This document shows positions 9,687-60,627 of a DNA stretch of 64,000 nucleotides, in pieces. Where the stretch lies: assembly GCA_040004125.1 (NCBI GenBank), contig JBDUBL010000003.1:8392-72391 (forward strand), given 5' to 3'. The notes under the pieces are model-generated. The model had not been told where the DNA came from. It was given only the letters and a program-made list of their open reading frames with translations, and searched no databases. The stretch is from Actinomycetota bacterium. GTDB taxonomy: Bacteria; Actinomycetota; UBA4738; HRBIN12. The number at the start of each line of letters is the position of its first letter. The first letter of the stretch is position 1. Position numbers and translations under genes: made by a program.

Positions 9687-10957
9687 GGTGCGACTCCGCG
9701 CAGCTCCTTCATCCCCACGGGTCCCACAACCGCGAGCGTCATCGGTTGGGACAGTACCCGCTCGGCCACCCGATGCGCATCGTCCAAGCTCACGGCCTCA
9801 ACCCGCTGCAGCGTCTCGCTCAAGGTCAAGATCTCGCCGTGCGCCACCTCGGCTTTGCCCAGACGCGACATCCGGCTGCCGGGGTCTTCTTGCGACAGCA
9901 CGGTCGAGCCCTTCACATGGCTCTTCGCGCGGGCGAACTCTTCCGGGGTGATGCCGCCGTCGCGAACATCTTCAAGCTCGTGGCGCATGAGCCCAAGCAC
10001 CTCGGCGGCGCGGTTGGGAGCCGTTCCCGCGTAGGCGCTGAACACGCCGGCCTCAGTGTATTGCGAGTGGAAGCTGTAGGCGGTGTAGGCGAGCCCGCGC
10101 TTCTCGCGGATCTCCTGGAACAGGCGCGAGCTCATACCGCCCCCGAGCACGGTGTTCACGATCAGGAACGGGAATCGGTCGGGATCGGTGCGCGCGAGCC
10201 CGTTGGTACCGAGCACGATGTTGGCCTGCTCGACGCGCTTGCGCTTGATCATGTGTGCACCGGAGGGTTTCGGCGCACGGCGCATCACGCGGACCTCCTT
10301 TGCCGAGCGACCCCGCGCGCCCAGCGGCCGCCCGACGTCCATGCGCTCGGCGAGCATCGCCAGCACGCGATCGTGCTTCACGTTGCCCGCCACCGAGATG
10401 ACCATCCTGCCCGGCACGTAGTGGCGCCGGTAGAAGCCGCGCACCGACGCGCGCGTGGAGGCGCGGATCCGGTCCTTGGTCCCGAGGATTGGGCGTCCGA
10501 GCGGGTGCCCCGGCCACAAAGCCTCGGTGAACACGTCGTGCACCATGTCCTCGGGCGAGTCCTCGTGCATATCGATCTCGGACAGGATCACTTCGGTCTC
10601 ACCCGCGAGGTCGGCTGCGGCGATCTTCGAGTGCAGCAGCATGTCGACTAAGTGCTCGACCGCCATCTCGAGGTCGCGGTCGAGCACGCGCGCGTAGTAG
10701 CACGTGTACTCCTTGGCGGTGAACGCGTTCACATCGCCGCCGACCGCGTCGAACGCCTCGGCGATGTCGAGCGCGCTGCGCGACTCGGTCCCCTTGAACA
10801 GCAGGTGCTCGAGGAAATGACAGTGCCCGCTGATCGCCGGCCGCTCGTCACGAGAGCCGGCTAGCACCCAGATGCCGATCGTGGCGGAGCGGACGCCAGG
10901 CATCCGCTCCGTCACGACACGCAGACCCGAGCTGAACTCGGTGCGTGTGATCGTCAT
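9683..10957 (-). CDS. M16-family (pitrilysin-like) zinc peptidase
   Basis: Trimmed to ATG 10957 (MTITRTEFSSGLRVV...). Inverted zinc motif HFLEHLLFKG (HxxEH). Sits in the conserved position downstream of pnp. Confidence 0.9.
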   Translation of the reverse strand: MTITRTEFSSGLRVVTERMPGVRSATIGIWVLAGSRDERPAISGHCHFLEHLLFKGTESRSALDIAEAFDAVGGDVNAFTAKEYTCYYARVLDRDLEMAVEHLVDMLLHSKIAAADLAGETEVILSEIDMHEDSPEDMVHDVFTEALWPGHPLGRPILGTKDRIRASTRASVRGFYRRHYVPGRMVISVAGNVKHDRVLAMLAERMDVGRPLGARGRSAKEVRVMRRAPKPSGAHMIKRKRVEQANIVLGTNGLARTDPDRFPFLIVNTVLGGGMSSRLFQEIREKRGLAYTAYSFHSQYTEAGVFSAYAGTAPNRAAEVLGLMRHELEDVRDGGITPEEFARAKSHVKGSTVLSQEDPGSRMSRLGKAEVAHGEILTLSETLQRVEAVSLDDAHRVAERVLSQPMTLAVVGPVGMKELRGVAP

Positions 10958-30966: not shown

Positions 30967-32079
30967 CTACGGTCCATTCGGGATCGGCTTCCACACGTCG
31001 AGGATCATCGCGGAGACCGAGAAGAACCCCAGGATCAACAGGACCACCGCCGAGACCGGCACGACCTTCTTCATGTCGATGCGCTTGCCGCGGATCTTCT
31101 CGATCACCGCGATCGCCACGTGGCCACCGTCCAGAGGCGGGAAGGGCAGCAGGTTGATCAGCCCGATGAACAGAACGACGGTGGCGAACAACGTGAAGTA
31201 CCAAGCCCACGCCCCTTGCGAGCCCGCGTGACCCGCCGCTTGGCCGACCGCGATCAACGACACGCCGCCGTCCGTGCTCCGGGGGGCGCCCGTGAAGAGC
31301 TGCGAATAGGTGCGCTGGAACCCCGACGGGCCGAATACCTTGGTGATACCGGTCACTGCCTCGCGCGTGGTGTCCCAGAGAGACCCCCCCGCGTGCTCCA
31401 GCGCCCCGATCGGGCCCTCCTTCACGCCTGCCATTTGGATGCCGATGCGCGCCCCTTTGACACCGTCGGTCTGCGTCTGGACGGGCGTGGCCGTGAGCGA
31501 AAGCTCCTGGCCATCTCTGTCGACGACGTAGACGATCGGTTCGCCTACATGCGCCGCCTGGTAGTCGCCCACTTCGCCGAGGTTCGGCTGTGAGAGGTCG
31601 CCGATCTGCAGGACCACATCGCCCGGCTGCAGGCCGGCGACGGCGGCAGGCGACGGCCGACCGTTGATCAGCGGCTCGACCGCGGCGATGCCCGGGATGC
31701 TCCAATTCGCGGAAAAGAAGAACACGGCCGCGAAGATGCAGTAGGCAACGACGAAATGGGAGAACGGTCCGGCGAGGATCACGGTGACGCGTTGCCACAC
31801 CGGCCGGGCGGTGTACGCGCGATGCTCGTCTCCTTCGGGCACGTCGTTCTCGAAGGGGTTCATGCCGGCGATCTTCACGTAGCCGCCGGCGGGGATCGCC
31901 TTGACGCCGTACTCGATCTCGCCGCGGCGGAACGACCAGAGCTTGGGACCGAACCCGAGGAAGTACTCCAGCACCCGGAAGTTGAACCTGCGTGCCGCCA
32001 GGTAGTGCCCGCCTTCGTGGATCATCACGATGGCGAACATCGCGACGACGAACAACACGATCGACAGTCCGAACGCCAT
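30967..32079 (-). CDS. rseP: Site-2 (RIP) zinc metalloprotease, RseP/Rip1 type, with PDZ domain
   Basis: 370 aa with HEGGHYLAARRF (HExxH) and NLLPFPPLDGGH. Sits in the conserved position between dxr and ispG. Confidence 0.92.
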   Translation of the reverse strand: MAFGLSIVLFVVAMFAIVMIHEGGHYLAARRFNFRVLEYFLGFGPKLWSFRRGEIEYGVKAIPAGGYVKIAGMNPFENDVPEGDEHRAYTARPVWQRVTVILAGPFSHFVVAYCIFAAVFFFSANWSIPGIAAVEPLINGRPSPAAVAGLQPGDVVLQIGDLSQPNLGEVGDYQAAHVGEPIVYVVDRDGQELSLTATPVQTQTDGVKGARIGIQMAGVKEGPIGALEHAGGSLWDTTREAVTGITKVFGPSGFQRTYSQLFTGAPRSTDGGVSLIAVGQAAGHAGSQGAWAWYFTLFATVVLFIGLINLLPFPPLDGGHVAIAVIEKIRGKRIDMKKVVPVSAVVLLILGFFSVSAMILDVWKPIPNGP

Positions 32080-41950: not shown

Positions 41951-42892
41951 TCAGGCCCTCGGGTGGGAGCGCTCATAGGCCTCGAAGAGCCGCGCCCGCG
42001 AGACGTGCGTGTAGCGCTGGGTGGTGGCAACGCTGCTATGTCCCAGCAGTTCCTGTACCGCGCGGATGTCAGCCCCTCCTTCCAACAGGTGTGTCGCGAA
42101 CGAGTGCCGAAGCGTGTGCGGGCCGACCCGGCGCCCCGGCAACAAGGCATCAGCATAACCGTCCACCATCGCTCGAACGTCACGCGGGGTGATCGGCTTG
42201 TGCTTGCGATTCAGGAACAGCGCCTCGGTCGGGACCGTCGCGAGGATCGGACGGGCCTCGGCCAGCCACACCCGAAGCGCCGCCACCGCGTAGTCCGAAA
42301 GCGGCACCCGGCGCTGCTTCGCGCCCTTGCCGATCACGTGTACCCGGCCGCCGTCGAGGTCGAGCCCCGTCCGCTCAAGCGTCGTGACCTCGCTCACCCG
42401 CAGGCCGGATCCGTAGAGCAACTCCAGGATCGCCTCGTCGCGCAGGCGCACCGCCTGGTCGACCGGATCCTCGGCGGGGGTCGCGGCGGGCACCTCCATC
42501 AGCGCCGCTGCCTCACCCGCCCGCAGCACGGTCGGGAGGCGGTTGGCGACCTTCGGCCTGCCGAGCAGCAGGGACGGATCGCGATCGATGCGCCCCGCGT
42601 CGTTCGCCCACCGGTAGAAGGTGTGGATCGCGCCCACGCGCCGGGCGATCGAGGCGCGGGCGTATCCGAGTGCGTGTTGCTGGGCGAGGAAGCGACGCAA
42701 GGTCGCCTGATCCGCTCCCTCCAAGGTCCGGTGCGATCGATGCAGGAACGTCGCGAGGTGCAGCAGATCCGTACGGTATGCGGTCCGGGTGTTGACCGCG
42801 AGGTGACGCTCCAGGCGCAGATGTGCAAGGAACGAATCGATCAGCTCACGCTGGGGTGCGGGCAGCGCGTCGTCGTTGGATACGGGTGCCAC
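41951..42892 (-). CDS. xerC: Tyrosine recombinase XerC
   Basis: 313 aa with the catalytic region [39 protein letters not shown]. Housekeeping synteny with dprA and whiG. Confidence 0.9.
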
Positions 42893-49945: not shown

Positions 49946-51469
49946 ATGGACGACACCACCGCGATCGCTCGTTCCCTTCCTGCGAGACCTGATCGGCGGA
50001 GCCGGCACGCGGGAACCTGGGGGGGTGTCGCCGCGGCTTGCGCGTTCGGATTCCTTGCCGACGCCGCGGCGCGGACACCCAGCGGCCTCGCGCTGACCCT
50101 GGCGACCTGGCTCGCGGGTGCTGCGGTCATTACGTTCGTGCGACCGCGTCGCGCCGGCGCGCCGTTCGTCGTCGCGGCGTGCGCGATCGGCGCCTGTCTC
50201 ACACTGCGCGCGTCCCCGGTCCTGACAGGGCTCAACGTGCTCGCCGCAGGTGCGCTGTTGTGCGCCGGAGCTTCGTTTGCGAGGCTCGGCACGCCGATCG
50301 CGACGACGACTCGCTCCTACCTGGCACGGCTCGTGTGGAGTCCACTGCAGGCGATGCCGGAGGGCGCAGCCAGCCTTGCCGGCCCGCCAACCCGCCTCCT
50401 GCGCTCATGGCGAGGCACGGCGGGGGGTCTGGCGCGTGGGTTGCTCCTCGTCGTGCCCGTCGCCCTGGCGCTGCTGGTGTTGTTGGCCAGCGCCGACGCG
50501 GTGTTCGCCCGGTATGTCCGAGTCCCGATCCGGGTGGCGCCTGGCTCGATCGCCTCGCGCGCGCTCGTGCTTGCGGTCGGAGCACTGGCGCTCGCGACAC
50601 TTGTTGCCATCGGCACGCTGGGCCCCTCGACGATCGACGCGGCAGCGCAACGGCCGGTCCGCGCTGCGTGGGCGCGGGCCGGCGACTGGGTCGCACTGCT
50701 TGTGGTGGCCGACGTCATCTTCGGGGCCTTCGTAGCGGTGCAGTTCACGGTCTTCTTCGGCGGGCGCGCGCAGGTTCTGACCGCCGAGGGGCTTACGTAC
50801 GCGCAGTACGCGCGTACCGGCTTCTGGCAACTGCTCAGTGCCACTGCGATCGCCGGGGGCGTCCTTGCCTTCGCCTGGGCTGCGCTGCCGCGCCCCCTGC
50901 CGCGGGGCGTCCGCCTGGTGTTCCAGGCGCTCGGCCTCACCCTGATCGTGTTCGTGCTCGTGGTGCTCGTATCGGCGTTCCATCGGCTGGCGCTGTACGA
51001 GGATGCATATGGCTACACGTGGCTGCGGGTGTTGGCGCACACCGCGATCCTGGCGATCGGTGCACTCCTGCTCTGCGCCATGGTGACGGTCGTGCGCGGT
51101 CGAGCGGCGTGGCTGCCCTTCGCGGCCGTCGTGATCGCGACTGCTGCGGTGCTCGGTCTCAACGTCGTGAACCTGGATGCGTTCATCGCGACGCGGAACA
51201 TCTCGCGGGCGGCGAACGGGGCTCCGCTAGATGCCAGAGAGCTGACGCGGTTGTCCGCCGACGCCGCGCCGACGATGGCGGCCGCGCTCGATTCGCTGAC
51301 CCCGGCCGCGCGCACCGACTTCGAAGGCATTCTGGCGTGCATGCGCGACCAACTCGAACGACAGACCGCGAGCGGCTGGGCCGGGAGCAACTGGGGGCGT
51401 AACCTCGCCCTCGAGGCGCTCACGGAGCGCCGTCTCCCGCCGTGTCGAGCTCCGCGAGGACCCTTCTAG
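49946..51469 (+). CDS. DUF4153/DUF4173-like polytopic membrane protein
   Basis: 507 aa with more than 10 TM segments and the conserved-looking [14 protein letters not shown] segment typical of that family. Assigned by eye. Confidence 0.65.
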
Positions 51470-52146
51470 CGCTGCTTCTCGCCGAGGTCGGGGCGGTTGC
51501 GCGCGGTCTTGGCGCGTGCGGCGTCGCGACGCCATGTCTCGATGGCTGCGTGGTCGCCCGAGACCAGCACTTCCGGCACACGCAGGCCTCGGAACGCCTG
51601 CGGCCGTGTGTAGTGGGGGTGATCGAGCAAACCGGACTCGCTGAAGGAATCGCGCGCGTGGGACTGCTCCTTGCCGATCACGCCGGGGAGCAGGCGCGTG
51701 ACCGCTTCGACGAGGACGAGCGCTGGCAGCTCTCCTCCGGACACGACGTAGTCGCCGATCGAGACTTCCTGCGCGGGGAGGCCGTCGATGACCCGCTCGT
51801 CGAACCCCTCGTAGCGCCCACACAACAGCGTGAGGTGTGGCTCTGCGGCAAGCTCGACCACGAGCGTCTGGTCCAGTCGGGGCCCCGAAGGCGACAACGC
51901 AAGCACGCGACCTCGGTCCGGATCGAGCGACTCGACCGCTGCGAACAGCGGCTCCACCCTCAACACCATGCCCGGGCCACCACCGAAGGACGCATCGTCG
52001 ACACTGCGGTGCGTATCCAGGGACCAGTCGCGCAGATCGTGGATGCGCACATCGACGAGACCACTCTCGATCGCCCTGCCGAGCAGGCTCTCGGTCAGGA
52101 ATCCAGGGAACAACCCCGGGAAGATCGTGATGATGTCGATACGCAC
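51466..52146 (-). CDS. trmD: tRNA (guanine37-N1)-methyltransferase
   Basis: 226 aa from a GTG start, with MRIDIITIFPGLF and GGELPALVLVEAVTRLLPGV. Confidence 0.95.
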   Translation of the reverse strand: MRIDIITIFPGLFPGFLTESLLGRAIESGLVDVRIHDLRDWSLDTHRSVDDASFGGGPGMVLRVEPLFAAVESLDPDRGRVLALSPSGPRLDQTLVVELAAEPHLTLLCGRYEGFDERVIDGLPAQEVSIGDYVVSGGELPALVLVEAVTRLLPGVIGKEQSHARDSFSESGLLDHPHYTRPQAFRGLRVPEVLVSGDHAAIETWRRDAARAKTARNRPDLGEKQR

Positions 52147-52187
52147 GCCCCGAGGCTACCGCGCCCCGTCGGCGCGGCCTCGTGGCG

Positions 52188-52430
52188 TCAGTGGCGGAAG
52201 GGGATCGTCAGCAGCGTCGCGGTGGAGGCCGCGACCCGGCGGATCGACGTTGCGCGCTGCGCCGACCGGCGCGCGGCGATACTGCGGCTGGCCCGGTGGC
52301 CTTCCGCGATGCGGACCATGTCGTTCACCCGGTACTTGGCAGCGTCTCCGTTCAGCATCTGCGCACCCCCTGTGTCGATGGCAACAGCGTAGGAATCGAG
52401 GTCTGCTGTCGCGATGACGACCGTCACCAT
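52188..52430 (-). CDS. Hypothetical 80-aa protein (not listed as its own ORF in the track)
   Basis: ATG 52430-52428 lies inside the 163-aa track ORF 52188-52679. Sequence: MVTVVIATADLDSYAVAIDTGGAQMLNGDAAKYRVNDMVRIAEGHRAS... then an Arg/Ala/Ser-rich tail. By hand count 68 of 80 third positions are G/C, and position-2 composition is coding-like. The stop lies 41 nt upstream of the trmD start. No Shine-Dalgarno sequence seen. Confidence 0.4.
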   Translation of the reverse strand: MVTVVIATADLDSYAVAIDTGGAQMLNGDAAKYRVNDMVRIAEGHRASRSIAARRSAQRATSIRRVAASTATLLTIPFRH

Positions 52431-52458
52431 CGACGTGTGTCGTCGGCGACCGATCCGG

Positions 52459-52474
52459 TGTGATGCGCGACACG
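52459..52474. promoter_or_regulatory. CRP-like box TGTGA-TGCGCG-ACACG (8/10 to TGTGA-N6-TCACA) in the divergent promoter region
   Basis: Read directly from the sequence. It lies 84 nt upstream of the M50-CNB start and 29 nt upstream of the 80-aa ORF start. It overlaps the 8-bp-stem palindrome cgacacgc-gggaa-gcgtgtcg (52468-52488). Confidence 0.3.
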
Positions 52475-52557
52475 CGGGAAGCGTGTCGGGTTGCGGGAAC
52501 CGCCCCCCTCGGGCAGGATGCGTTCCGGCCGTTCGCTTCCGGAGTCCGAGGAGGAGT

Positions 52558-54849
52558 ATGCAGTACCTGATCCTCGCCGCGCTGCTCATCGCGGGCTCGA
52601 TCGTGGGCGTCGACGCGATCCGCGAGCGCGCCGCCCGCCGCAAAGCGTTGCACGTTCCTGGTCTCGTCTCCGCCGCCATCCGCTCGCAAAGTCAGCCCGG
52701 AAGGCCGGTTGCACCGGCTCTGTCGGCATCGCTGGCGGCGGCGCCTCCGACCGAGGGCGACGCCGGAGGGTTGTGGGACGAGCTGACGGCGATGCTCGAT
52801 CCCGAGACGTTCGCGCCCACGCTCGCGGAGGGCACCGAGATCAAGAACTTCAAGATGCGCTGGGGCAACGACTTCGCGATCGTCGCTCGCCCCGACCACG
52901 CCCTCCATTTCGAGCTCCAGCCGTGGGAGGCGACGCTCATGGCGCAGATGGACGGCACGAAGACAGCGCAGGAGCTGATCGTCGATCACCTGCAGGCGGT
53001 CGGCGATCTCGATCCCGGCGCTGTGCTCGGGCTGATCGTGGCGCTGCGTGAGGGAGGGTTCCTCGATCCCGCCCGACCGGATGTGAAGGTGCTGGTGCAG
53101 CTGCACCTCGATCGCGCCTCGGCGGGCCGGCGGAAACTCCGCGACTTCGCGAAGAACCTCCGGATCTCGTGGTCAGGAGCGGAGCGATTCGTCGAGGGCG
53201 CGTATCGGGGCGGCCTGAAGCTCTTCTTCCGCCCTGTCATGGTTGTGCTCTGCTCCATCGTGGCGTTGGTCGGCCTCGTCGCGTTCATCGGCGTGCAGCA
53301 ATCGGGGCGCTATCAACTGTCGACGACCGCAGCACCGGTTGAGACCCTGCTGTTCCTCGCACTCGCCCTCTTCCTCACCTTCGCCCACGAGCTGGGGCAC
53401 GCCGTGGCGCTGATCCACTACGAGCGTCGGGTGCTCGGCGCCGGCTTCTTCATCTTCTTCGGGTCGCCGGCCTTCTTCGTCGACGCGTCCGACGGTTTGA
53501 TGTTGGATCGCCGTGAGCGGGTCGTGCAGTCGTTCGCGGGGCCGTTCTCGGAGATGATTCTCGCCGGCGTTGCCTCCCTCGTGATCGTGGCCACCCCGGG
53601 CAGCGGTGTCGCGGCGTTCCTCTACCGGTTCGCCCTGATCAACTACTTCTTGATCTTCATGAACCTGATCCCGCTGCTGGAGCTCGACGGGTACTGGATC
53701 TTCTCGGACCTGATCCAGGTGCCGAACCTGCGGCGGCGCTCGATCAACTTCATCCAGGGCGACCTGTGGCACAAGATCGCCACATGGGAGAAGTTCAGCC
53801 TGCAGGAGCTCGGGCTCGGCTTCTACGGGATCGTCGGGATCGCGTTCACGATCTTCTCCTTCTACACCGCCTACTTCTTCTGGAAGGAGATCTTCGGCGG
53901 CCTGATCACCAGCCTGTGGGAGGGTGGGTTCGGCTCACGGATCCTGCTGGTGTTGCTTGCCTTGGTGTTCATCGGTCCGCTGATCCGCGGGCTGCTCACG
54001 CTCGGGCGGAGCGTGTACAAGCGTCTGAAATCGATCCGCGATCAGATCAGGTTCCGCGTGCAACGGTCGTGGCGGATCGAGGCGGCTGCGTTGATCGATG
54101 CGCTCCCCGCCTTCGACGACCTCGACGAGAACGTGCTGTCGGATCTCGCGGGCCGGATCGAGCTGGTGACCGTTCGCGACGGCCAAGCAGCGTTCCGCCG
54201 CGGCGACGTCGCCGACGCGTTCTACGTCGTGCGCTCCGGCACGATCCATATCGAAGACGAGGATCTCGAGGAGGGCGACACCCGAATCATCACCACGCTC
54301 GGGCGTGGCGACGCCTTCGGCGAGTTTGGGCTCATGGGCTCCGGCGTGCGAGCGGCCACCGCGCGCGCCGAAGGTGAGGCGACGCTGTTCCGCGTCGACA
54401 AGGCATCGTTCGATCGGCTGCTCGCCGACGACATCGACGCGCCGGACTTCGCCCCGACGATGCAGGCCTACGCCGAGCTTCGCTCGCTGCCGCCGCTGCG
54501 GACCTTGTCCACGACTGACCTCGCCCTCGTCCTGGAGCACGGCGAATGGCGCAACGTGGCGCCCGGGGAGCGACTGATCCGGCAGGGCGAAGCCGGCGAT
54601 GCCTTCTTCGCGATCGGCGCCGGACAGGTTGACGTCGAGAGGGACGGTGCGATCATCGCCACCCTCGGTCCCGGCCAGCACTTCGGCGAGATCGCGCTGT
54701 TGACCGACGAGCCACGCAATGCCAGCGTGACCGCGCACACGCCGCTGCGGGTCTTCGTTCTGGATCGCGAGGGATTCATCCGCGTGATCGCTCGAACGTT
54801 CCGACGCGGCGCGGCGGAACGAACACCCGACCGGAACATGGAGCACTGA
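52558..54849 (+). CDS. Polytopic M50-family (site-2-protease-like) metalloprotease with PqqD-like segment and two C-terminal cyclic-nucleotide-binding domains
   Basis: Trimmed from track ORF 52414-54849 to ATG 52558, directly after GAGGAGGAG, giving 763 aa. HELGH at 53386-53400 and NLIPLLELDG at 53662-53691. Phosphate-binding cassettes FGEFGLMGSGVRAATARA (54316-54369) and FGEIALLTDEPRNASVTA (54682-54735). Residues ~95-170 resemble PqqD/RRE. Confidence 0.85.
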   Translation: MQYLILAALLIAGSIVGVDAIRERAARRKALHVPGLVSAAIRSQSQPGRPVAPALSASLAAAPPTEGDAGGLWDELTAMLDPETFAPTLAEGTEIKNFKMRWGNDFAIVARPDHALHFELQPWEATLMAQMDGTKTAQELIVDHLQAVGDLDPGAVLGLIVALREGGFLDPARPDVKVLVQLHLDRASAGRRKLRDFAKNLRISWSGAERFVEGAYRGGLKLFFRPVMVVLCSIVALVGLVAFIGVQQSGRYQLSTTAAPVETLLFLALALFLTFAHELGHAVALIHYERRVLGAGFFIFFGSPAFFVDASDGLMLDRRERVVQSFAGPFSEMILAGVASLVIVATPGSGVAAFLYRFALINYFLIFMNLIPLLELDGYWIFSDLIQVPNLRRRSINFIQGDLWHKIATWEKFSLQELGLGFYGIVGIAFTIFSFYTAYFFWKEIFGGLITSLWEGGFGSRILLVLLALVFIGPLIRGLLTLGRSVYKRLKSIRDQIRFRVQRSWRIEAAALIDALPAFDDLDENVLSDLAGRIELVTVRDGQAAFRRGDVADAFYVVRSGTIHIEDEDLEEGDTRIITTLGRGDAFGEFGLMGSGVRAATARAEGEATLFRVDKASFDRLLADDIDAPDFAPTMQAYAELRSLPPLRTLSTTDLALVLEHGEWRNVAPGERLIRQGEAGDAFFAIGAGQVDVERDGAIIATLGPGQHFGEIALLTDEPRNASVTAHTPLRVFVLDREGFIRVIARTFRRGAAERTPDRNMEH

Positions 54850-54859
54850 GGAGGATCCG

Positions 54860-55072
54860 ATGGTGTGTTGGCATTGCCGCCGGACGGCGGTCGGCTCCTG
54901 CCGATTCTGTGGGCGTGGCGTGTGCGAGGACCACGCCAAGGAGCAGCCGTACGTCCTCGAGCTCTTCCGAGGCGGCGATATGACCCGCGCCCTCGTGGTC
55001 GAGGACGCCCTGTTCTGTGGAGCGTGTACGCCTCGACCGGATCCGATCGACCTGCCTGAGCTAGACGAGTGA
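54860..55072 (+). CDS. Small 8-Cys zinc-ribbon protein (DUF2180-like / B-box-like; family assignment tentative)
   Basis: 70 aa: MVCWHCRRTAVGSCRFCGRGVCEDHA...FCGACTPRP. The Shine-Dalgarno sequence GAGGAGGA (54848-54855) overlaps the stop of the upstream gene, with a 10-nt gap to the ATG, indicating translational coupling. Confidence 0.7.
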   Translation: MVCWHCRRTAVGSCRFCGRGVCEDHAKEQPYVLELFRGGDMTRALVVEDALFCGACTPRPDPIDLPELDE

Positions 55073-55083
55073 CGTTCGTCACA
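55068..55083. promoter_or_regulatory. Near-consensus CRP/GlxR-type box AGTGA-CGTTCG-TCACA
   Basis: 9/10 match to TGTGA-N6-TCACA and internally palindromic (GTGACG-TT-CGTCAC). It overlaps the stop codon of the Zn-ribbon gene and lies upstream of the small repeat ORF and crp. Confidence 0.5.
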
Positions 55084-55090
55084 CATCTGC

Positions 55091-55106
55091 CGTGACGGAA
55101 AGCACC
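55091..55106. promoter_or_regulatory. Second, weaker CRP-like box CGTGA-CGGAAA-GCACC
   Basis: 7/10 match to the consensus. Its centre is 23 bp from the first box. Confidence 0.25.
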
Positions 55107-55151
55107 GAGCGGATGTGACCCGCGATACCGACGACTCGGCGTTCCAGCGGG

Positions 55152-55361
55152 ATGATGCCGACATTGCACCGGCCCAAGAGGGCCCCGGACAGAGGGAGCG
55201 GCGAGATGGGCGACAAGAAGATTCAGCCGAAGCGGCCCGAGGGCGAGCAGGCGGCAGCGGGGATCCGCGATGCCGAGAAGACGTCGGCGCGGCGCTTCAG
55301 TGCGAGGCGCTGGAGTGCGAGGCGCTGGAGTGCGAGGCGCTGGAGTGCGAAGAGGGTCTGA
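55152..55361 (+). CDS. Small basic protein ending in a (S-A-R-R-W/F)x4 repeat; likely start at ATG 55206 (51 aa)
   Basis: Track ORF of 69 aa. GAGGGAG (55192-55198) lies 7 nt before ATG 55206. By hand count 44 of 51 third positions are G/C. TGA is at 55359-55361, 20 nt before a perfect hairpin. The reading frame across the repeat itself is ambiguous (see findings). Confidence 0.4.
   Translation: MMPTLHRPKRAPDRGSGEMGDKKIQPKRPEGEQAAAGIRDAEKTSARRFSARRWSARRWSARRWSAKRV
55291..55350 (+). repeat. Tandem direct repeat, 4 x 15 bp (GGCGCT[TC/GG]AGTGCGA)
   Basis: Copy 1 (55291-55305) is ggcgcttcagtgcga. Copies 2-4 (55306-55350) are identical, ggcgctggagtgcga. Confidence 0.95.
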
Positions 55362-55380
55362 GCCAACGAACTGGTGGCAC

Positions 55381-55412
55381 GAAAGGCCCGGGCCCGATGG
55401 CCCGGGCCTTTC
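55381..55412 (+). terminator. Perfect 14-bp-stem hairpin (gaaaggcccgggcc-cgat-ggcccgggcctttc)
   Basis: Read directly from the sequence. It lies 20 nt after the small-ORF stop and 56 nt before the crp ATG. There is no U-tract on either strand, so it may be an I-shaped terminator or processing site, possibly bidirectional. Confidence 0.5.
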
Positions 55413-55467
55413 GCTTGATCCGCGCCGGGTAGCGGAGACCCGCACCTTGCCGGTAGGCTCCACCACG

Positions 55468-56169
55468 ATGGCCGCTACCACCGACGCCGGGCTCGTTCCC
55501 GCCATGGCCTCCACCCCCGTGCTCCGGGGTGTCCCCCAGGAGCATGTCGAGAAGCTCGCCTCGCAGGGGGCGGTGCACCGCTTCCGCCGTGGCACCTACA
55601 TCTGCCACCAGGGGGATCCCTCCCCGGACGTGTATTTCCTCCTCGAGGGGCGGATCGAGATCGCCTCCTTCTCCCCGACCGGCGCTCGGATCCTGCACGC
55701 GTCCGTCGACACACCGCAGTTCTTAGGCGAGCTCGGTGTGCTCGGGAACCTCCCCCGGGGCGCCGATCTGCTCGCCCTCGAGGACACCGATGTGTGGACG
55801 ACGCCCGGGGATGACTTCATCGACTTCATCACGAGGCAGCCGGGAGCCGCGCGCCAGCTGCTGGCCGCTCTCGCGCGGCAGATCCAGGAACACCAGGCCT
55901 TCTCCGACGACCTGCTGTACCTCGACCTCAAGGGGCGGGTCGCGAAGCGGCTGCTCCAGATGGGCACGTCGTCGCTCGACGATCTCCCCGATGCAGGGAC
56001 GTCGGTGCCCGCGCTTACGCACGCGGACCTCGCCAGTCTCTGCGGCGGCAGCCGCGAGAACGTGACGCGGATCGTGGCGGACTTCCAGCGCCGCGGCATG
56101 GTGAACCGCGACGGGAAACGCTACATCTTGAAGAACCCCGTGCAGCTGGCCAAGATCGCCGGGCTCTAG
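55468..56169 (+). CDS. Crp/Fnr-family transcriptional regulator (CNB domain plus C-terminal HTH)
   Basis: Trimmed from track ORF 55270-56169 to ATG 55468 (MAATTDAGLVPAMASTPVLRGVPQEHVEKL...), giving 233 aa. CNB cassette FLGELGVLGNLPRGADL and HTH THADLASLCGGSRENVTRIVADFQRRG. TAGGCT (55454-55459) lies 8 nt before the ATG, suggesting a leaderless transcript. Confidence 0.88.
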   Translation: MAATTDAGLVPAMASTPVLRGVPQEHVEKLASQGAVHRFRRGTYICHQGDPSPDVYFLLEGRIEIASFSPTGARILHASVDTPQFLGELGVLGNLPRGADLLALEDTDVWTTPGDDFIDFITRQPGAARQLLAALARQIQEHQAFSDDLLYLDLKGRVAKRLLQMGTSSLDDLPDAGTSVPALTHADLASLCGGSRENVTRIVADFQRRGMVNRDGKRYILKNPVQLAKIAGL

Positions 56170-56684
56170 CCCGCGTCGTCGGGAGCCGTCAGTCCGGGCA
56201 GATCCCGTACGACGGCACGGCCGCCGGGGATATCGACCGAAACCACGAGATCGTCCACGGCAGGGATCAAGGTCTCGGTTCCGGGATCGGCGACGACGCG
56301 CCAGAGATCCTGGGCCGGGTAGGGCAGGACCTCGGCGATGCGGCCGATGGCTCTTCCGGACTCCGTCACGACATCGAGGCCCTCCACCTGATGAGACCAC
56401 CACCGGCCCTCGGGCAACTCCGGAAGCCAGGACTCGGGAATGAGCAGCTCGATACCGGCCACAGCTTCGGCCTCCGTTCGATCGCCGATCTCCTCGAAGG
56501 TCACGAGCAGTCGCTCGCCGTGCGGGCGGACGGTGCGCACGGTGTACGTGTGGCCCGTCGCGTCGAAGACGACCGCGCCGGGCACCCAGCGCTTGGGGTT
56601 GTCGGATCGGCTCTGCACGGACAACTCACCGCGCACACCGTGGGGCTTGGCGATGCGGCCGACGGTCACCGTCGGCTCGTCCAT
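56166..56684 (-). CDS. rimM: 16S rRNA processing protein RimM
   Basis: Trimmed to ATG 56684 (MDEPTVTVGRIAKPHGVRGELSVQ...), giving 172 aa. Sits in the conserved position after the KH protein. Confidence 0.93.
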   Translation of the reverse strand: MDEPTVTVGRIAKPHGVRGELSVQSRSDNPKRWVPGAVVFDATGHTYTVRTVRPHGERLLVTFEEIGDRTEAEAVAGIELLIPESWLPELPEGRWWSHQVEGLDVVTESGRAIGRIAEVLPYPAQDLWRVVADPGTETLIPAVDDLVVSVDIPGGRAVVRDLPGLTAPDDAG

Positions 56685-58824: not shown

Positions 58825-60627
58825 ATGAACGGGGCGGATAGCGAAGCGGCAAGGCTCGAGCGACACCTGGTCTGGCTGCGGTGGCTGGTGGCCGCCTTCG
58901 GGGCGGTCCAGGTCGGGTTTGCCGTCCGCGATCGGGGCCACGACCCGGCGTTCGCGCTCCCCTTGGCTGTGGCGCTGGTGATCGGCCTCACCGTGGGGAA
59001 CCTGGCGATCGCGAGCTCGGTCCGCAGGGCGACGAAGCCCACGCAGTTCCGCGCGATAGGCGTGGTTGCCTTCGTGCTCGACGCCGTCGTGATCCTCGGC
59101 CTCGTCTGGCTGGTTCCCAGCGGTCCGGCGGACCCCGTCTGGGTCCTCGGGTACCTCGTCCCGCTCGAGGGGGCGGCCCGATGGGGGCTGCGCGGCGGCC
59201 TGATCGGCGCCACCTTGTTCCTCGGGGAGCAGATCATGCAGGAGGCGGCCCGTGCCCAGGTCGCCGCCGGCGCTTCCCAGGTGTCGTTCCGCGCCGGGAT
59301 GGCCTTCGTGATCGGCGCCGTCACCGGTTCCTTCGTCTCGTCGTTGCAGCGCACCGCCGCCACCGCGGCGGCGAAGGCGGCCGAGGCGGCCGAGGCGGCC
59401 CAGCGCGCCGAACTTGCAGCGGCGCAGGCATCCGAGGCGCAGCGCGAGATCGCGGCGTTCCACGCCGCCGTGTTGTCCGACGCGCAGCCCGAACATCTCG
59501 CCGAGACGCTGCGGTCGACCGCCGGGCGGATCGCCGCGGAGCTCGAGTGCGAGGCCCTCGGGCTGCTCACGAGATCAACCGGGGCGGCCGGAGAGGTGAT
59601 CTTTGCGGTCGCGGGGGTGCATGGCGACCCGGGCTATCTGCTCGGTCAGCGGTTGTCGCCCGTCTCCGATCCCGTGGCCGCAGCTGCGATCGACGGCGAA
59701 ACGGTGGTCGCGCAGGGCGACGTCGTGGCGCCGATGCGAGTTCGAGGCAAGGTGGTGGGCGCCGTCCACGAGCGCGCAACGACGAGCCCCGATCCCGCCC
59801 GCATCGACGCGCTCCAGACGATCGCGGACCAGCTGGGTGTCGCGCTGGAGGCTACGCGCCTGCGCGCCGAGCAGGCCGCGATCGTCGAACGACTGACCGA
59901 GCTCGACACGATGAAGAGCGACTTCGTTGCGATCACGAGTCACGAGCTGCGCACCCCGCTGGCCGGGATCCGAGGCTTCGTCGACATGTTGTTGCGTCGT
60001 GGTCCCGAGCTGTCGCCGGCTGAGCAGCAAGAGTACCTCGGCATCGTCCAGACGCAGACCGAACGTCTGATCCACCTGGTGGACGATCTTCTCGTCGTCT
60101 CACGCGTGGAGGGCGATGCGCTGACGCTGGAGCCCACCGACATCGCGATCCGTTCGGTGCTGGCCCAGGTCGTTGCCGGGCTTGGCGAGTCCGGCGTCCG
60201 CATCGCGCTGGAAGAGGCTCCCGGCGCGCCCTCGACGTTGACGATCGACCCGAATCGCCTGATCCAGATCCTGACCAACCTGACCCACAACGCGGTGAAG
60301 TTCTCTCCCGCAGACGCGGTCGTCCGGCTCCGCTGGTCGGCGCCGGCGGAAGGAACGATCGTGTTCGAAGTGATCGATCGCGGCCCGGGCATCCCGCCCG
60401 CCGAGCAGCAGCTGATCTTCGAGCGATTCCGGCAGCGCGGCGACCACCGCTCCCACGCCGAGGGGTTTGGACTCGGTCTCTATATCACGAAGCTGTTGAC
60501 CGAGGCGATGGGCGGGTGGATCGACGTCACGTCGTCTCGCGAGGGCACGACGTTTCGGGTCACGCTTCCGGTGGCCCGTCCGTTGCCAACACCCGCTCGA
60601 CCGTCCGCAGCAACGCGGTCGGACTGA
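58825..60627 (+). CDS. Sensor histidine kinase (N-terminal ~5-TM domain, coiled coil, GAF, HisKA, HATPase_c)
   Basis: 600 aa. GAGGGAA lies upstream of ATG 58825. H-box ITSHELRTPLAGI, N-box LTNLTHNAVKF, G-boxes DRGPGI and GFGLGLYI. A GAF-like region lies at about residues 230-340. Confidence 0.9.
   Translation: MNGADSEAARLERHLVWLRWLVAAFGAVQVGFAVRDRGHDPAFALPLAVALVIGLTVGNLAIASSVRRATKPTQFRAIGVVAFVLDAVVILGLVWLVPSGPADPVWVLGYLVPLEGAARWGLRGGLIGATLFLGEQIMQEAARAQVAAGASQVSFRAGMAFVIGAVTGSFVSSLQRTAATAAAKAAEAAEAAQRAELAAAQASEAQREIAAFHAAVLSDAQPEHLAETLRSTAGRIAAELECEALGLLTRSTGAAGEVIFAVAGVHGDPGYLLGQRLSPVSDPVAAAAIDGETVVAQGDVVAPMRVRGKVVGAVHERATTSPDPARIDALQTIADQLGVALEATRLRAEQAAIVERLTELDTMKSDFVAITSHELRTPLAGIRGFVDMLLRRGPELSPAEQQEYLGIVQTQTERLIHLVDDLLVVSRVEGDALTLEPTDIAIRSVLAQVVAGLGESGVRIALEEAPGAPSTLTIDPNRLIQILTNLTHNAVKFSPADAVVRLRWSAPAEGTIVFEVIDRGPGIPPAEQQLIFERFRQRGDHRSHAEGFGLGLYITKLLTEAMGGWIDVTSSREGTTFRVTLPVARPLPTPARPSAATRSD

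Follow-up and report, generated by a model that had tools for sequence, protein, structure and literature searches.

A conserved actinobacterial gene cassette built around a predicted M50 membrane protease with an RRE-type winged helix and tandem cyclic-nucleotide-binding domains

The site-2 proteases (S2Ps) of family M50 are known to be controlled through PDZ domains, through CBS domains or by site-1 cleavage, and a 2023 review of these enzymes lists PDZ and CBS as the only regulatory-domain groups. On the other hand, M50 enzymes serve as leader or scaffold peptidases in the making of epipeptides (EpeP/YydH) and pearlins (TglG/TmoG), and MpaP/DapP of the daptide clusters has been published as a leader peptidase that depends on a RiPP recognition element (RRE; RiPP, a peptide made by the ribosome and modified after translation), the RRE being fused N-terminally to the S2P. 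Daptide clusters need, in addition, genes for a DUF-RRE protein, an oxidative decarboxylase, an aminotransferase and a methyltransferase, as well as a precursor ending in Thr. The RRE-guided M50 peptidases known to date are constitutive enzymes of RiPP clusters. In this paper, we analyse a stretch of 64,000 nucleotides (the window) from contig JBDUBL010000003.1 of an Actinomycetota bacterium of the UBA4738/HRBIN12 lineage (assembly GCA_040004125.1), which encodes a protein combining an RRE-type domain, an M50/S2P core and two cyclic-nucleotide-binding (CNB) domains at the head of a small, recurrent gene cassette.

In most Actinomycetota the cassette runs in the order protease, zinc-finger protein, basic peptide and Crp/Fnr-family regulator (Table 1). 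We read it, at roughly even confidence, as a peptide-processing protease system that depends on the RRE and is gated by a cyclic nucleotide monophosphate (cNMP). The original prediction, drawn up from the window alone, had left two readings of the protease side by side: an S2P under second-messenger control, or a maturation protease that recognises a leader. What we find speaks for the two in combination, because the RRE and M50 half of the protein is homologous to the daptide peptidase family, peptides with a leader and a variable core adjoin it in two phyla, and its cNMP cassettes are canonical and invariant. The analysis establishes which domains are present, that their motifs are intact, the logic of the topology, the co-occurrence of the genes, the peptide family with its leader and variable tail, and the linkage of the CRP boxes. 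Peptide binding, cleavage and its site, cNMP binding and gating, the use of the boxes by the regulator and the role of the zinc protein are the steps that we infer.

The longest open reading frame of the protease begins at 52414 in a window whose GC content is 66-72%. The start at 52558 chosen in the original prediction is supported by homologue length (755-766 amino acids) and by alignments that begin at MQYLIL. Residue invariance in the protease was judged on an alignment of 33 homologues of 52-90% identity. By this measure H277, E278 and H281 of the zinc motif HELGH (residues 277-281, nucleotides 53386-53400, inside the AlphaFold2 (AF2) helix 259-287) are invariant, as are N369, P372, D377 and G378 of NLIPLLELDG (residues 369-378, nucleotides 53662-53691), an NxxPxxxxDG motif supplying the third zinc ligand (Asp); the coordinates first given for both motifs are exact. 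Pfam Peptidase_M50 (PF02163) is passed marginally, at 30.3 bits against a cut-off of 27.2. The protein is by its intact motifs a member of M50/S2P, with a predicted protease function.

The segment ahead of the core had been likened to PqqD by eye, with structure prediction proposed as the check. Since full-length Foldseek comparison was dominated by PKA/PKG matches, this N-terminal domain was modelled alone for the fold search. Three strands (94-98, 106-110, 117-120) followed by three helices (122-129, 137-148, 153-165) appear in both the full-length and the domain-only AF2 models, the latter with a pLDDT of 80 overall and above 90 in the core. Against the PDB, the best matches were leader-peptide-bound RREs of lasso peptide systems, TbiB1 5v1u/5v1v (E 3e-3 to 1e-2, TM-score 0.63-0.65, probability 1.0), followed by the B1 protein 6jx3, with a probability of 0.97-1.0 across these matches. 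A PDB sequence search with a profile of the domain returned the MecI winged helix alone (E 0.085), and among 23 domain homologues Pfam PqqD matched below threshold in 4 (best E 0.007) and PaaA-like_N in 6; RREs have been reported as highly variable in sequence. The by-eye call thus holds in the models: the N-terminal segment is, as modelled, a genuine RRE-type winged helix with putative peptide binding. The best NCBIfam match of the whole protein is daptide_HExxH (NF041824; 161.6 bits, E 2.8e-47, residues 106-449 against profile positions 17-349 of 379), which stays below the equivalog cut-off of 300 bits. Judged by this profile, the RRE and M50 half is homologous to the daptide peptidase family MpaP/DapP, its closest curated family.

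The C-terminal half matches Pfam cNMP_binding (PF00027) in two stretches, at 138.2 bits against a cut-off of 27.5, and residues 510-745 align as a single unit with the CNB-A and CNB-B domains of the PKA regulatory subunit (PKA-R) and PKG. F-G-E...R-x-A is retained in each of the two phosphate-binding cassettes, which can be matched position by position to the cGMP/cAMP cassettes of PKG and PKA; this agrees with the two intact CNB domains seen at the outset. In sequence terms, this half is a bona fide cNMP-binding tandem of the PKA-R/PKG type, with predicted ligand binding.

How these parts sit in the membrane was judged from hydropathy, AF2 helices and the positive-inside rule. The N-terminal transmembrane (TM) segment of the original prediction is backed by a hydropathy peak and an AF2 helix, and the basic stretch RERAARRK after it is assigned to the cytoplasmic side. 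HExxH and LDG are placed at the cytoplasmic ends of the six later TM helices, and a long helix is placed between the membrane core and the cytoplasmic CNB domains. The most plausible topology therefore has 7 TM helices with the N-terminus outside and the RRE, active site and CNB domains all in the cytoplasm, so that docking domain, active site and sensor would lie on one side of the membrane. The mean pLDDT of the full-length AF2 model is 75.5.

The full-length RRE-M50-CNBx2 architecture comprises >1000 clusters at 90% identity, nearly all from soil or metagenome Actinomycetota, under database names that go no further than "CRP-like cAMP-binding protein/Zn-dependent protease" or "cyclic nucleotide-binding domain-containing protein". 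With the RRE and M50 core alone as query, the number of representative proteins recovered was 368 under a limit of E <= 1e-30 and 3313 under E <= 1e-10, with lengths grouping near 700-760 and 1030-1170 amino acids, plus shorter forms. Among species-representative genomes the matches all come from metagenome-assembled genomes (MAGs), in Actinomycetota and, more distantly (25-32% identity), in Chloroflexi and a few others. Our literature search returned no paper describing an M50-CNB fusion, the DUF2180-like partner or the cassette. The original prediction was to be given up if the architecture turned out to be both widespread and already functionally assigned; widespread it is, and since it carries no functional assignment the prediction survives on this point. 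The cassette behaves as a unit because it recurs in different genomic contexts, at least three in number: between trmD and rimM on the opposite strand (the window), between rplS and trmD, and in a prmC-like...moaA setting. The 70- and roughly 51-residue neighbours flagged alongside the protease proved to be conserved cassette partners.

The basic peptide of the window has an N-terminal region MGDKKIQPKRP...AEKTSARR and a tail coded by a 15-nt repeat present in 4.3 copies (55287-55350) that yields (ARRWS)n. Homologous, very basic peptides of 40-60 amino acids follow the zinc protein in about 35 actinobacterial loci. Their N-terminus is conserved as MAEKKIxPKxP, a linker of about 11 residues and then AA(T)RV(T/S)K or AEKTSA(K/R)R, with a tail that is a lineage-specific tandem repeat. 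In relatives with 88-90% identity in the protease and 99% in the zinc protein, the tail is swapped entirely, for (ARRWS)x3, (KRVHA)5 or a non-repeat sequence, while the leader is retained with synonymous changes, including a TCG/AGC serine switch. The C-termini differ between loci, and that of the window peptide is Val. A homologue search with full-length peptides gave at least 201 clusters, all annotated as hypothetical; two randomly chosen members were both found in the same cassette, and gene callers predict the peptide frames in relatives. The generic pattern of a RiPP precursor is thus present, with a conserved leader, a hypervariable core, an adjoining predicted leader peptidase and sometimes several copies. 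Two paralogous peptide genes occur in locus L002 (8549-8686 and 8854-8988) and in locus L081 (8650-8799 and 9015-9152). In L081 a CRP box precedes, and a hairpin follows, each of the copies; for L002 the only exact box found is upstream of the first copy.

At or just past the zinc-protein stop codon, an exact GTGA-N6-TCAC core, usually TGTGAC-N4-GTCACA, recurs across the loci, often in 2-3 copies spaced 22-24 bp apart. Its density is 3.7 per kb in this gap versus 0.06 per kb elsewhere in the loci, a 60-fold difference. The window box lies 137 nt upstream of the peptide ATG. By position the predicted box is that of the peptide gene, because 31 of the 34 peptide genes have an exact box upstream (median distance 136 nt) and because it is kept with the second L081 copy and with a peptide gene displaced by 1.6 kb in locus L010. 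Four more exact sites occur in the window (10719-10732, 31343-31356, 42384-42397 and 58978-58991); the total of 5 compares with 0.9 expected from shuffles, none of which reached 5, and the four may be other targets of a Crp-type regulator. Some 85-100 nt upstream of where the protease starts is a degenerate CRP-like site, TGTGATGCGCGACACG (52459-52474), with 2 mismatches, a number at which such a site cannot be told statistically from chance. The Crp/Fnr gene, identified by Pfam and NCBIfam matches, follows the peptide in most actinobacterial loci, the gene calls in relatives being 233-235 amino acids long.

Chloroflexi carry a version of the same cassette, with the Crp/Fnr gene upstream of the protease and the zinc protein downstream. 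The Anaerolineales protease (1105 amino acids), encoded in a MAG at locus L041 (4811-8128), shares the RRE, the M50 core and the pair of CNB domains and is without the first TM helix. It is of the Chloroflexi long form (about 1030-1170 amino acids), with an extra multi-TM insert of about 370 residues and a soluble segment of about 150 residues between the M50 core and the CNB domains. Precursor genes of the NHLP clan, whose families NF038399 (Os1348 family) and PF14407 (Frankia_peptide) are treated in the literature as RiPP precursors, are found in five of the six Chloroflexi loci with sufficient flanks; NF038399 matches reach 70.8 and 52.4 bits against a cut-off of 40, and a PF14407 match reaches 50.8 bits against 48. 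These precursors have a conserved leader of about 64 residues ending in LDER(I/V/L)(S/T)K, followed by variable C-termini such as SILGIFY, GKIVL, VAGAGLAIGFFNHP and one long Gly/Ala repeat. The NHLP-clan precursor at L041 8748-9596 has a C-terminal region of about 200 residues, rich in (A/G) with AAGG-type repeats, and no short core.

Table 1. Features of the protease cassette in the window (positions are those of the window)
Feature	Position	Strand	Description and basis
RRE-M50-CNBx2 intramembrane metalloprotease (predicted)	52558..54849	+	763 aa; open reading frame, domain matches, homologues of the same length and architecture
N-terminal TM helix	52561..52626	+	residues 2-23; hydropathy peak 2.23; AF2 helix 2-29
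RRE / PqqD-like winged helix	52834..53070	+	residues 93-171; beta3-alpha3; AF2, Foldseek, daptide_HExxH profile
M50/S2P membrane core	53233..54015	+	residues 226-486; six TM helices and beta-hairpin 292-310
cNMP-binding domain A	54091..54429	+	residues 512-624; Pfam; PKG/PKA alignment
Domain A phosphate-binding cassette FGEFGLMGSGVRAATARA	54316-54369	+	G588, E589, R598 invariant (33 homologues)
cNMP-binding domain B	54460..54807	+	residues 635-750; Pfam; PKG/PKA alignment
Domain B phosphate-binding cassette FGEIALLTDEPRNASVTA	54682-54735	+	G710, E711, R720 invariant (33 homologues)
Cys7His zinc-finger protein (B-box/C5HCH/DUF2180-like)	54860..55072	+	70 aa; GGAGGA Shine-Dalgarno
CRP/FNR-type box aGTGACGTTCGTCACA (TGTGA-N6-TCACA)	55068..55083		overlaps zinc-gene stop codon; exact core 55069-55082
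Basic peptide MGDKKIQPKRPEGEQAAAGIRDAEKTSARRFSARRWSARRWSARRWSAKRV	55206..55361	+	51 aa; GGGAG Shine-Dalgarno; leader-like N-terminus, hypervariable repeat tail
GC-rich hairpin, terminator-like	55380..55413	+	perfect 15-bp stem; after peptide gene
Crp/Fnr-family regulator	55468..56169	+	233 aa; cNMP_binding 64.3 bits, HTH_Crp_2 51 bits, above cut-offs

In the mechanism that we propose, the cytoplasmic RRE would dock the conserved N-terminal region of the small peptide, and the cytoplasm-facing HExxH/LDG site would cut near the leader/tail junction, freeing the cationic repeat tail. A cNMP would bind the Crp-type regulator, and this would act on the TGTGA-N6-TCACA boxes that precede the peptide gene; it would also bind the tandem CNB domains, which would gate the protease on the model of the CBS domain in SpoIVFB. 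With peptide transcription and protease activity both under cNMP control, the arrangement would be a feed-forward one, and the 70-residue zinc protein would be an accessory subunit that the system cannot do without, in the role of adaptor, inhibitor or co-substrate. A bolder form of this proposal, which we regard as possible and rather doubtful, is that the cassette represents a new class of cyclic-nucleotide-triggered ribosomal-peptide systems: cAMP or cGMP would induce the peptide gene, by way of the Crp-type regulator and tandem CRP boxes, and open the RRE-guided protease, by way of its PKA-R-like CNB tandem, with the B-box-like zinc protein obligate; the cationic repeat peptides, unmodified and rapidly diversifying, would have their leader cut and possibly be passed across the membrane; and NHLP-type substrates would take their place in Chloroflexi.

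Several observations weigh against a peptide-processing system. For the RRE, Foldseek gives E-values that are no more than modest (3e-3 to 0.1), the gathering score of Pfam PqqD (PF05402) is not reached, with no match at E <= 1 over the whole protein, and the pTM of the full-length AF2 model is just 0.50. No peptide is recognisable in loci L028, L031, L033 and L083/84. Neither modification enzymes nor an exporter were seen near the actinobacterial peptide, in the conserved cassette or in the actinobacterial flanks, and the tail composition resembles that of nucleoid or histone-like basic tails, with sub-threshold HC2 and H1-like matches; the product could therefore act inside the cell, and to judge from its composition the peptide may be nothing more than a common small basic protein under shared regulation. 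The actinobacterial loci all come from related uncultured lineages, so the synteny may be partly inherited rather than selected. Finally, it is the zinc protein and not the peptide that accompanies the protease everywhere, as its sole universally conserved partner.

The zinc-protein gene begins 10 nt past the protease stop codon and, wherever tblastn searches with the window neighbours found it, comes immediately after the protease; a reverse look-up from two zinc-protein homologues found the protease pairing in all places with upstream sequence. Cysteines 3, 6, 14, 17, 22, 53 and 56 are invariant and H25 is nearly so. The C-terminal tail, PRPDPIDLPELD in the window, is conserved across phyla as PRPDPxxLPELD. 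Weak matches to C5HCH and DUF2180 occur in all 21 members compared, the B-box likeness is also weak, and the window protein scores 20.4 bits for DUF2180 (PF09947), below the gathering score of 22.2, while some relatives bear a precomputed PF09947 match or the name DUF2180. The family comprises 454 clusters, all annotated as hypothetical. In one lineage (loci L083/L084, 2774-5213) the pair of protease and zinc protein lies within a nuo (NADH dehydrogenase) operon, between a polyprenyl synthase gene and nuoA, with no peptide or Crp gene beside it.

The best surviving alternative, which we consider rather unlikely, takes this protein rather than the basic peptide to be the true RRE ligand, either as a cleaved substrate or as a pseudo-substrate or inhibitor whose PRPDPxxLPELD tail occupies the RRE or active site until cNMP releases it, with the peptides as co-regulated cargo of the Crp regulon. 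It draws on the presence of the zinc protein in every cassette locus, always immediately downstream and translationally close; on its conservation, which exceeds that of the protease between phyla (64-93% identity in Actinomycetota and 49-61% in Chloroflexi, against 27-32% for the Chloroflexi protease); on a tail shared across phyla, whereas Actinomycetota and Chloroflexi have putative precursors of unrelated families; and on the L083/84 pairs that do without peptide and regulator. There is also a precedent for a small inhibitory protein in an S2P active site, namely BofA with SpoIVFB. However, uniform conservation over the whole length and eight metal ligands suit a zinc protein with a fold of its own better than a peptide substrate in extended form, the RRE-M50 relatives of known function act on leader peptides, and the genes with a leader and variable core beside the pair in two phyla would be left unexplained. 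Leader-dependent processing of the small peptides, gated by cNMP, is the reading that we keep.

Quite improbable, in our judgement, is a classical S2P of regulated intramembrane proteolysis, for which the substrate would be a membrane-anchored regulator encoded elsewhere, such as an anti-sigma factor, the CNB domains would be the regulatory input and the winged helix would have a structural or non-peptide role. The intact M50 core with its membrane-reentrant-like beta-hairpin, typical of S2Ps, fits such an enzyme, and cytoplasmic regulatory domains are known in the family (CBS, in group III S2Ps). Yet the RseP and SpoIVFB models gave no match at E <= 1, the nearest curated families being RiPP peptidases; no conserved neighbourhood holds a sigma or anti-sigma gene; the winged helix matches leader-binding RREs specifically; and the conserved partners are soluble small proteins. 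That the CNB-like domains are not cAMP or cGMP sensors, and serve another ligand, dimerisation or autoinhibition so that the cNMP link is apparent only, is likewise very unlikely: members of the CRP/FNR-CNB superfamily do bind other effectors, and no cyclase gene was identified adjoining the cassette in the conserved neighbourhoods (the rest of the window was not searched for cyclases), but both cassettes keep their canonical, PKG/PKA-aligned residues, invariant among the homologues and retained in the Chloroflexi orthologue, and a Crp-type regulator with CRP boxes in the same cassette suits a cNMP circuit.

The window cassette is flanked by housekeeping genes, its neighbours being trmD, rplS, lepB, rimM, a KH protein, rpsP and ffh. 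A Pycsar or other cNMP-based anti-phage effector was rejected, as the PADLOC matches were confined to the CNB regions and the surroundings are those of an operon of ribosomal and housekeeping genes. A folding energy of -43.7 kcal/mol (z = -5.05) was obtained for the 71 nt around the hairpin (55362-55432), every peptide gene in loci L081 and L082 is likewise followed by an equivalent hairpin, and an Rfam scan of 52000-56300 gave sub-threshold matches to the terminator hairpin only. The Crp-like gene (+) and rimM (-) are convergent, with 3' ends overlapping by 4 nt (56166-56169). A gene for a DUF4153 multi-TM protein (218.6 bits; 49946-51469, +) between rplS and trmD makes, after the cassette, the second insertion on the opposite strand of the rpsP-rimM-trmD-rplS-lepB-rnhB block and lies near the cassette in loci L020 and L029 too. 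In the prmC...moaA group, a conserved protein is encoded directly upstream of the protease in 11 loci (L007 4946-5968 and equivalents); its predicted features are a signal peptide and a TM anchor at the C-terminus, its reading frame reaches 340 amino acids in L007, with about 240 conserved, and it is absent from the window.

The fusion of an M50 protease to a PKA-R-like sensor would tie cyclic-nucleotide signalling to intramembrane or leader proteolysis, the more so in a cassette that holds a Crp regulator and peptide genes under putative CRP-box control as well; if the bolder proposal is right, no S2P gated by a second messenger and no RiPP-like maturation step under cNMP control would have preceded it. 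Uncultured soil Actinomycetota commonly carry the cassette, which also occurs in Chloroflexi, and a large set of "hypothetical" small proteins, with 454 zinc-protein and at least 201 peptide clusters beside the >1000 of the protease, would gain a context. Its parts are four, small and cloneable, which opens the link between cNMP and proteolysis to testing.

Among known systems, the sensor half is closest to the PKA-R/PKG tandem: alignments with RI-alpha, Bcy1 and PKG reach E-values down to 1e-34, Foldseek gives E 1e-19, and both phosphate-binding cassettes are canonical here as there. In contrast to those proteins, the tandem is joined to a membrane protease, not to a kinase or inhibitor sequence. 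SpoIVFB, a group III S2P, is alike in concept, with a cytoplasmic nucleotide-sensing domain and small partners, its inhibitors BofA and SpoIVFA, that control access to the active site; it differs in using a CBS sensor rather than tandem CNB domains and in cutting Pro-sigmaK, and the two have no family match at the sequence level.

On the side of the substrate, the Chloroflexi cassettes are like NHLP-clan systems in encoding above-threshold family members with conserved leaders and short variable cores, whereas the window peptide has no match to NF038399 or PF14407 and its lone likeness to these precursors would be the (E/T)R(V/I)(S/T)K-like junction between leader and tail. EpeP/YydH and TglG/TmoG resemble the present protease as M50 enzymes of the membrane, and their substrates are small soluble ribosomal peptides, as proposed here, and not TM anchors; unlike it, they show no RRE match and have no CNB domains, and their clusters have modification enzymes. 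The original prediction had named YydH-like peptidases as the precedent for an RRE joined to M50, which has to be corrected: the documented fusion is MpaP/DapP, and the YydH/LiaK model matches only the catalytic core (residues 230-391, 46 bits against a cut-off of 225).

It is therefore MpaP/DapP that offers the closest comparison. Both proteins have an N-terminal RRE followed by an M50 core, and both adjoin a small precursor-like peptide, sometimes in several copies. Membership of the daptide family itself was rejected, with a score about half the cut-off, no daptide genes nearby and a peptide without C-terminal Thr. The window protease has no MpaB/C/D/M-type genes near it, its peptide is basic and repetitive and lacks the invariant C-terminal Thr, and the protein carries about 260 extra C-terminal residues with the two cNMP-binding domains, an extra N-terminal TM helix and an obligate partner in the 70-residue zinc protein. 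Relative to the RRE-guided M50 leader peptidases, what would be new in this cassette is thus a second-messenger sensor together with an obligate zinc-protein subunit.

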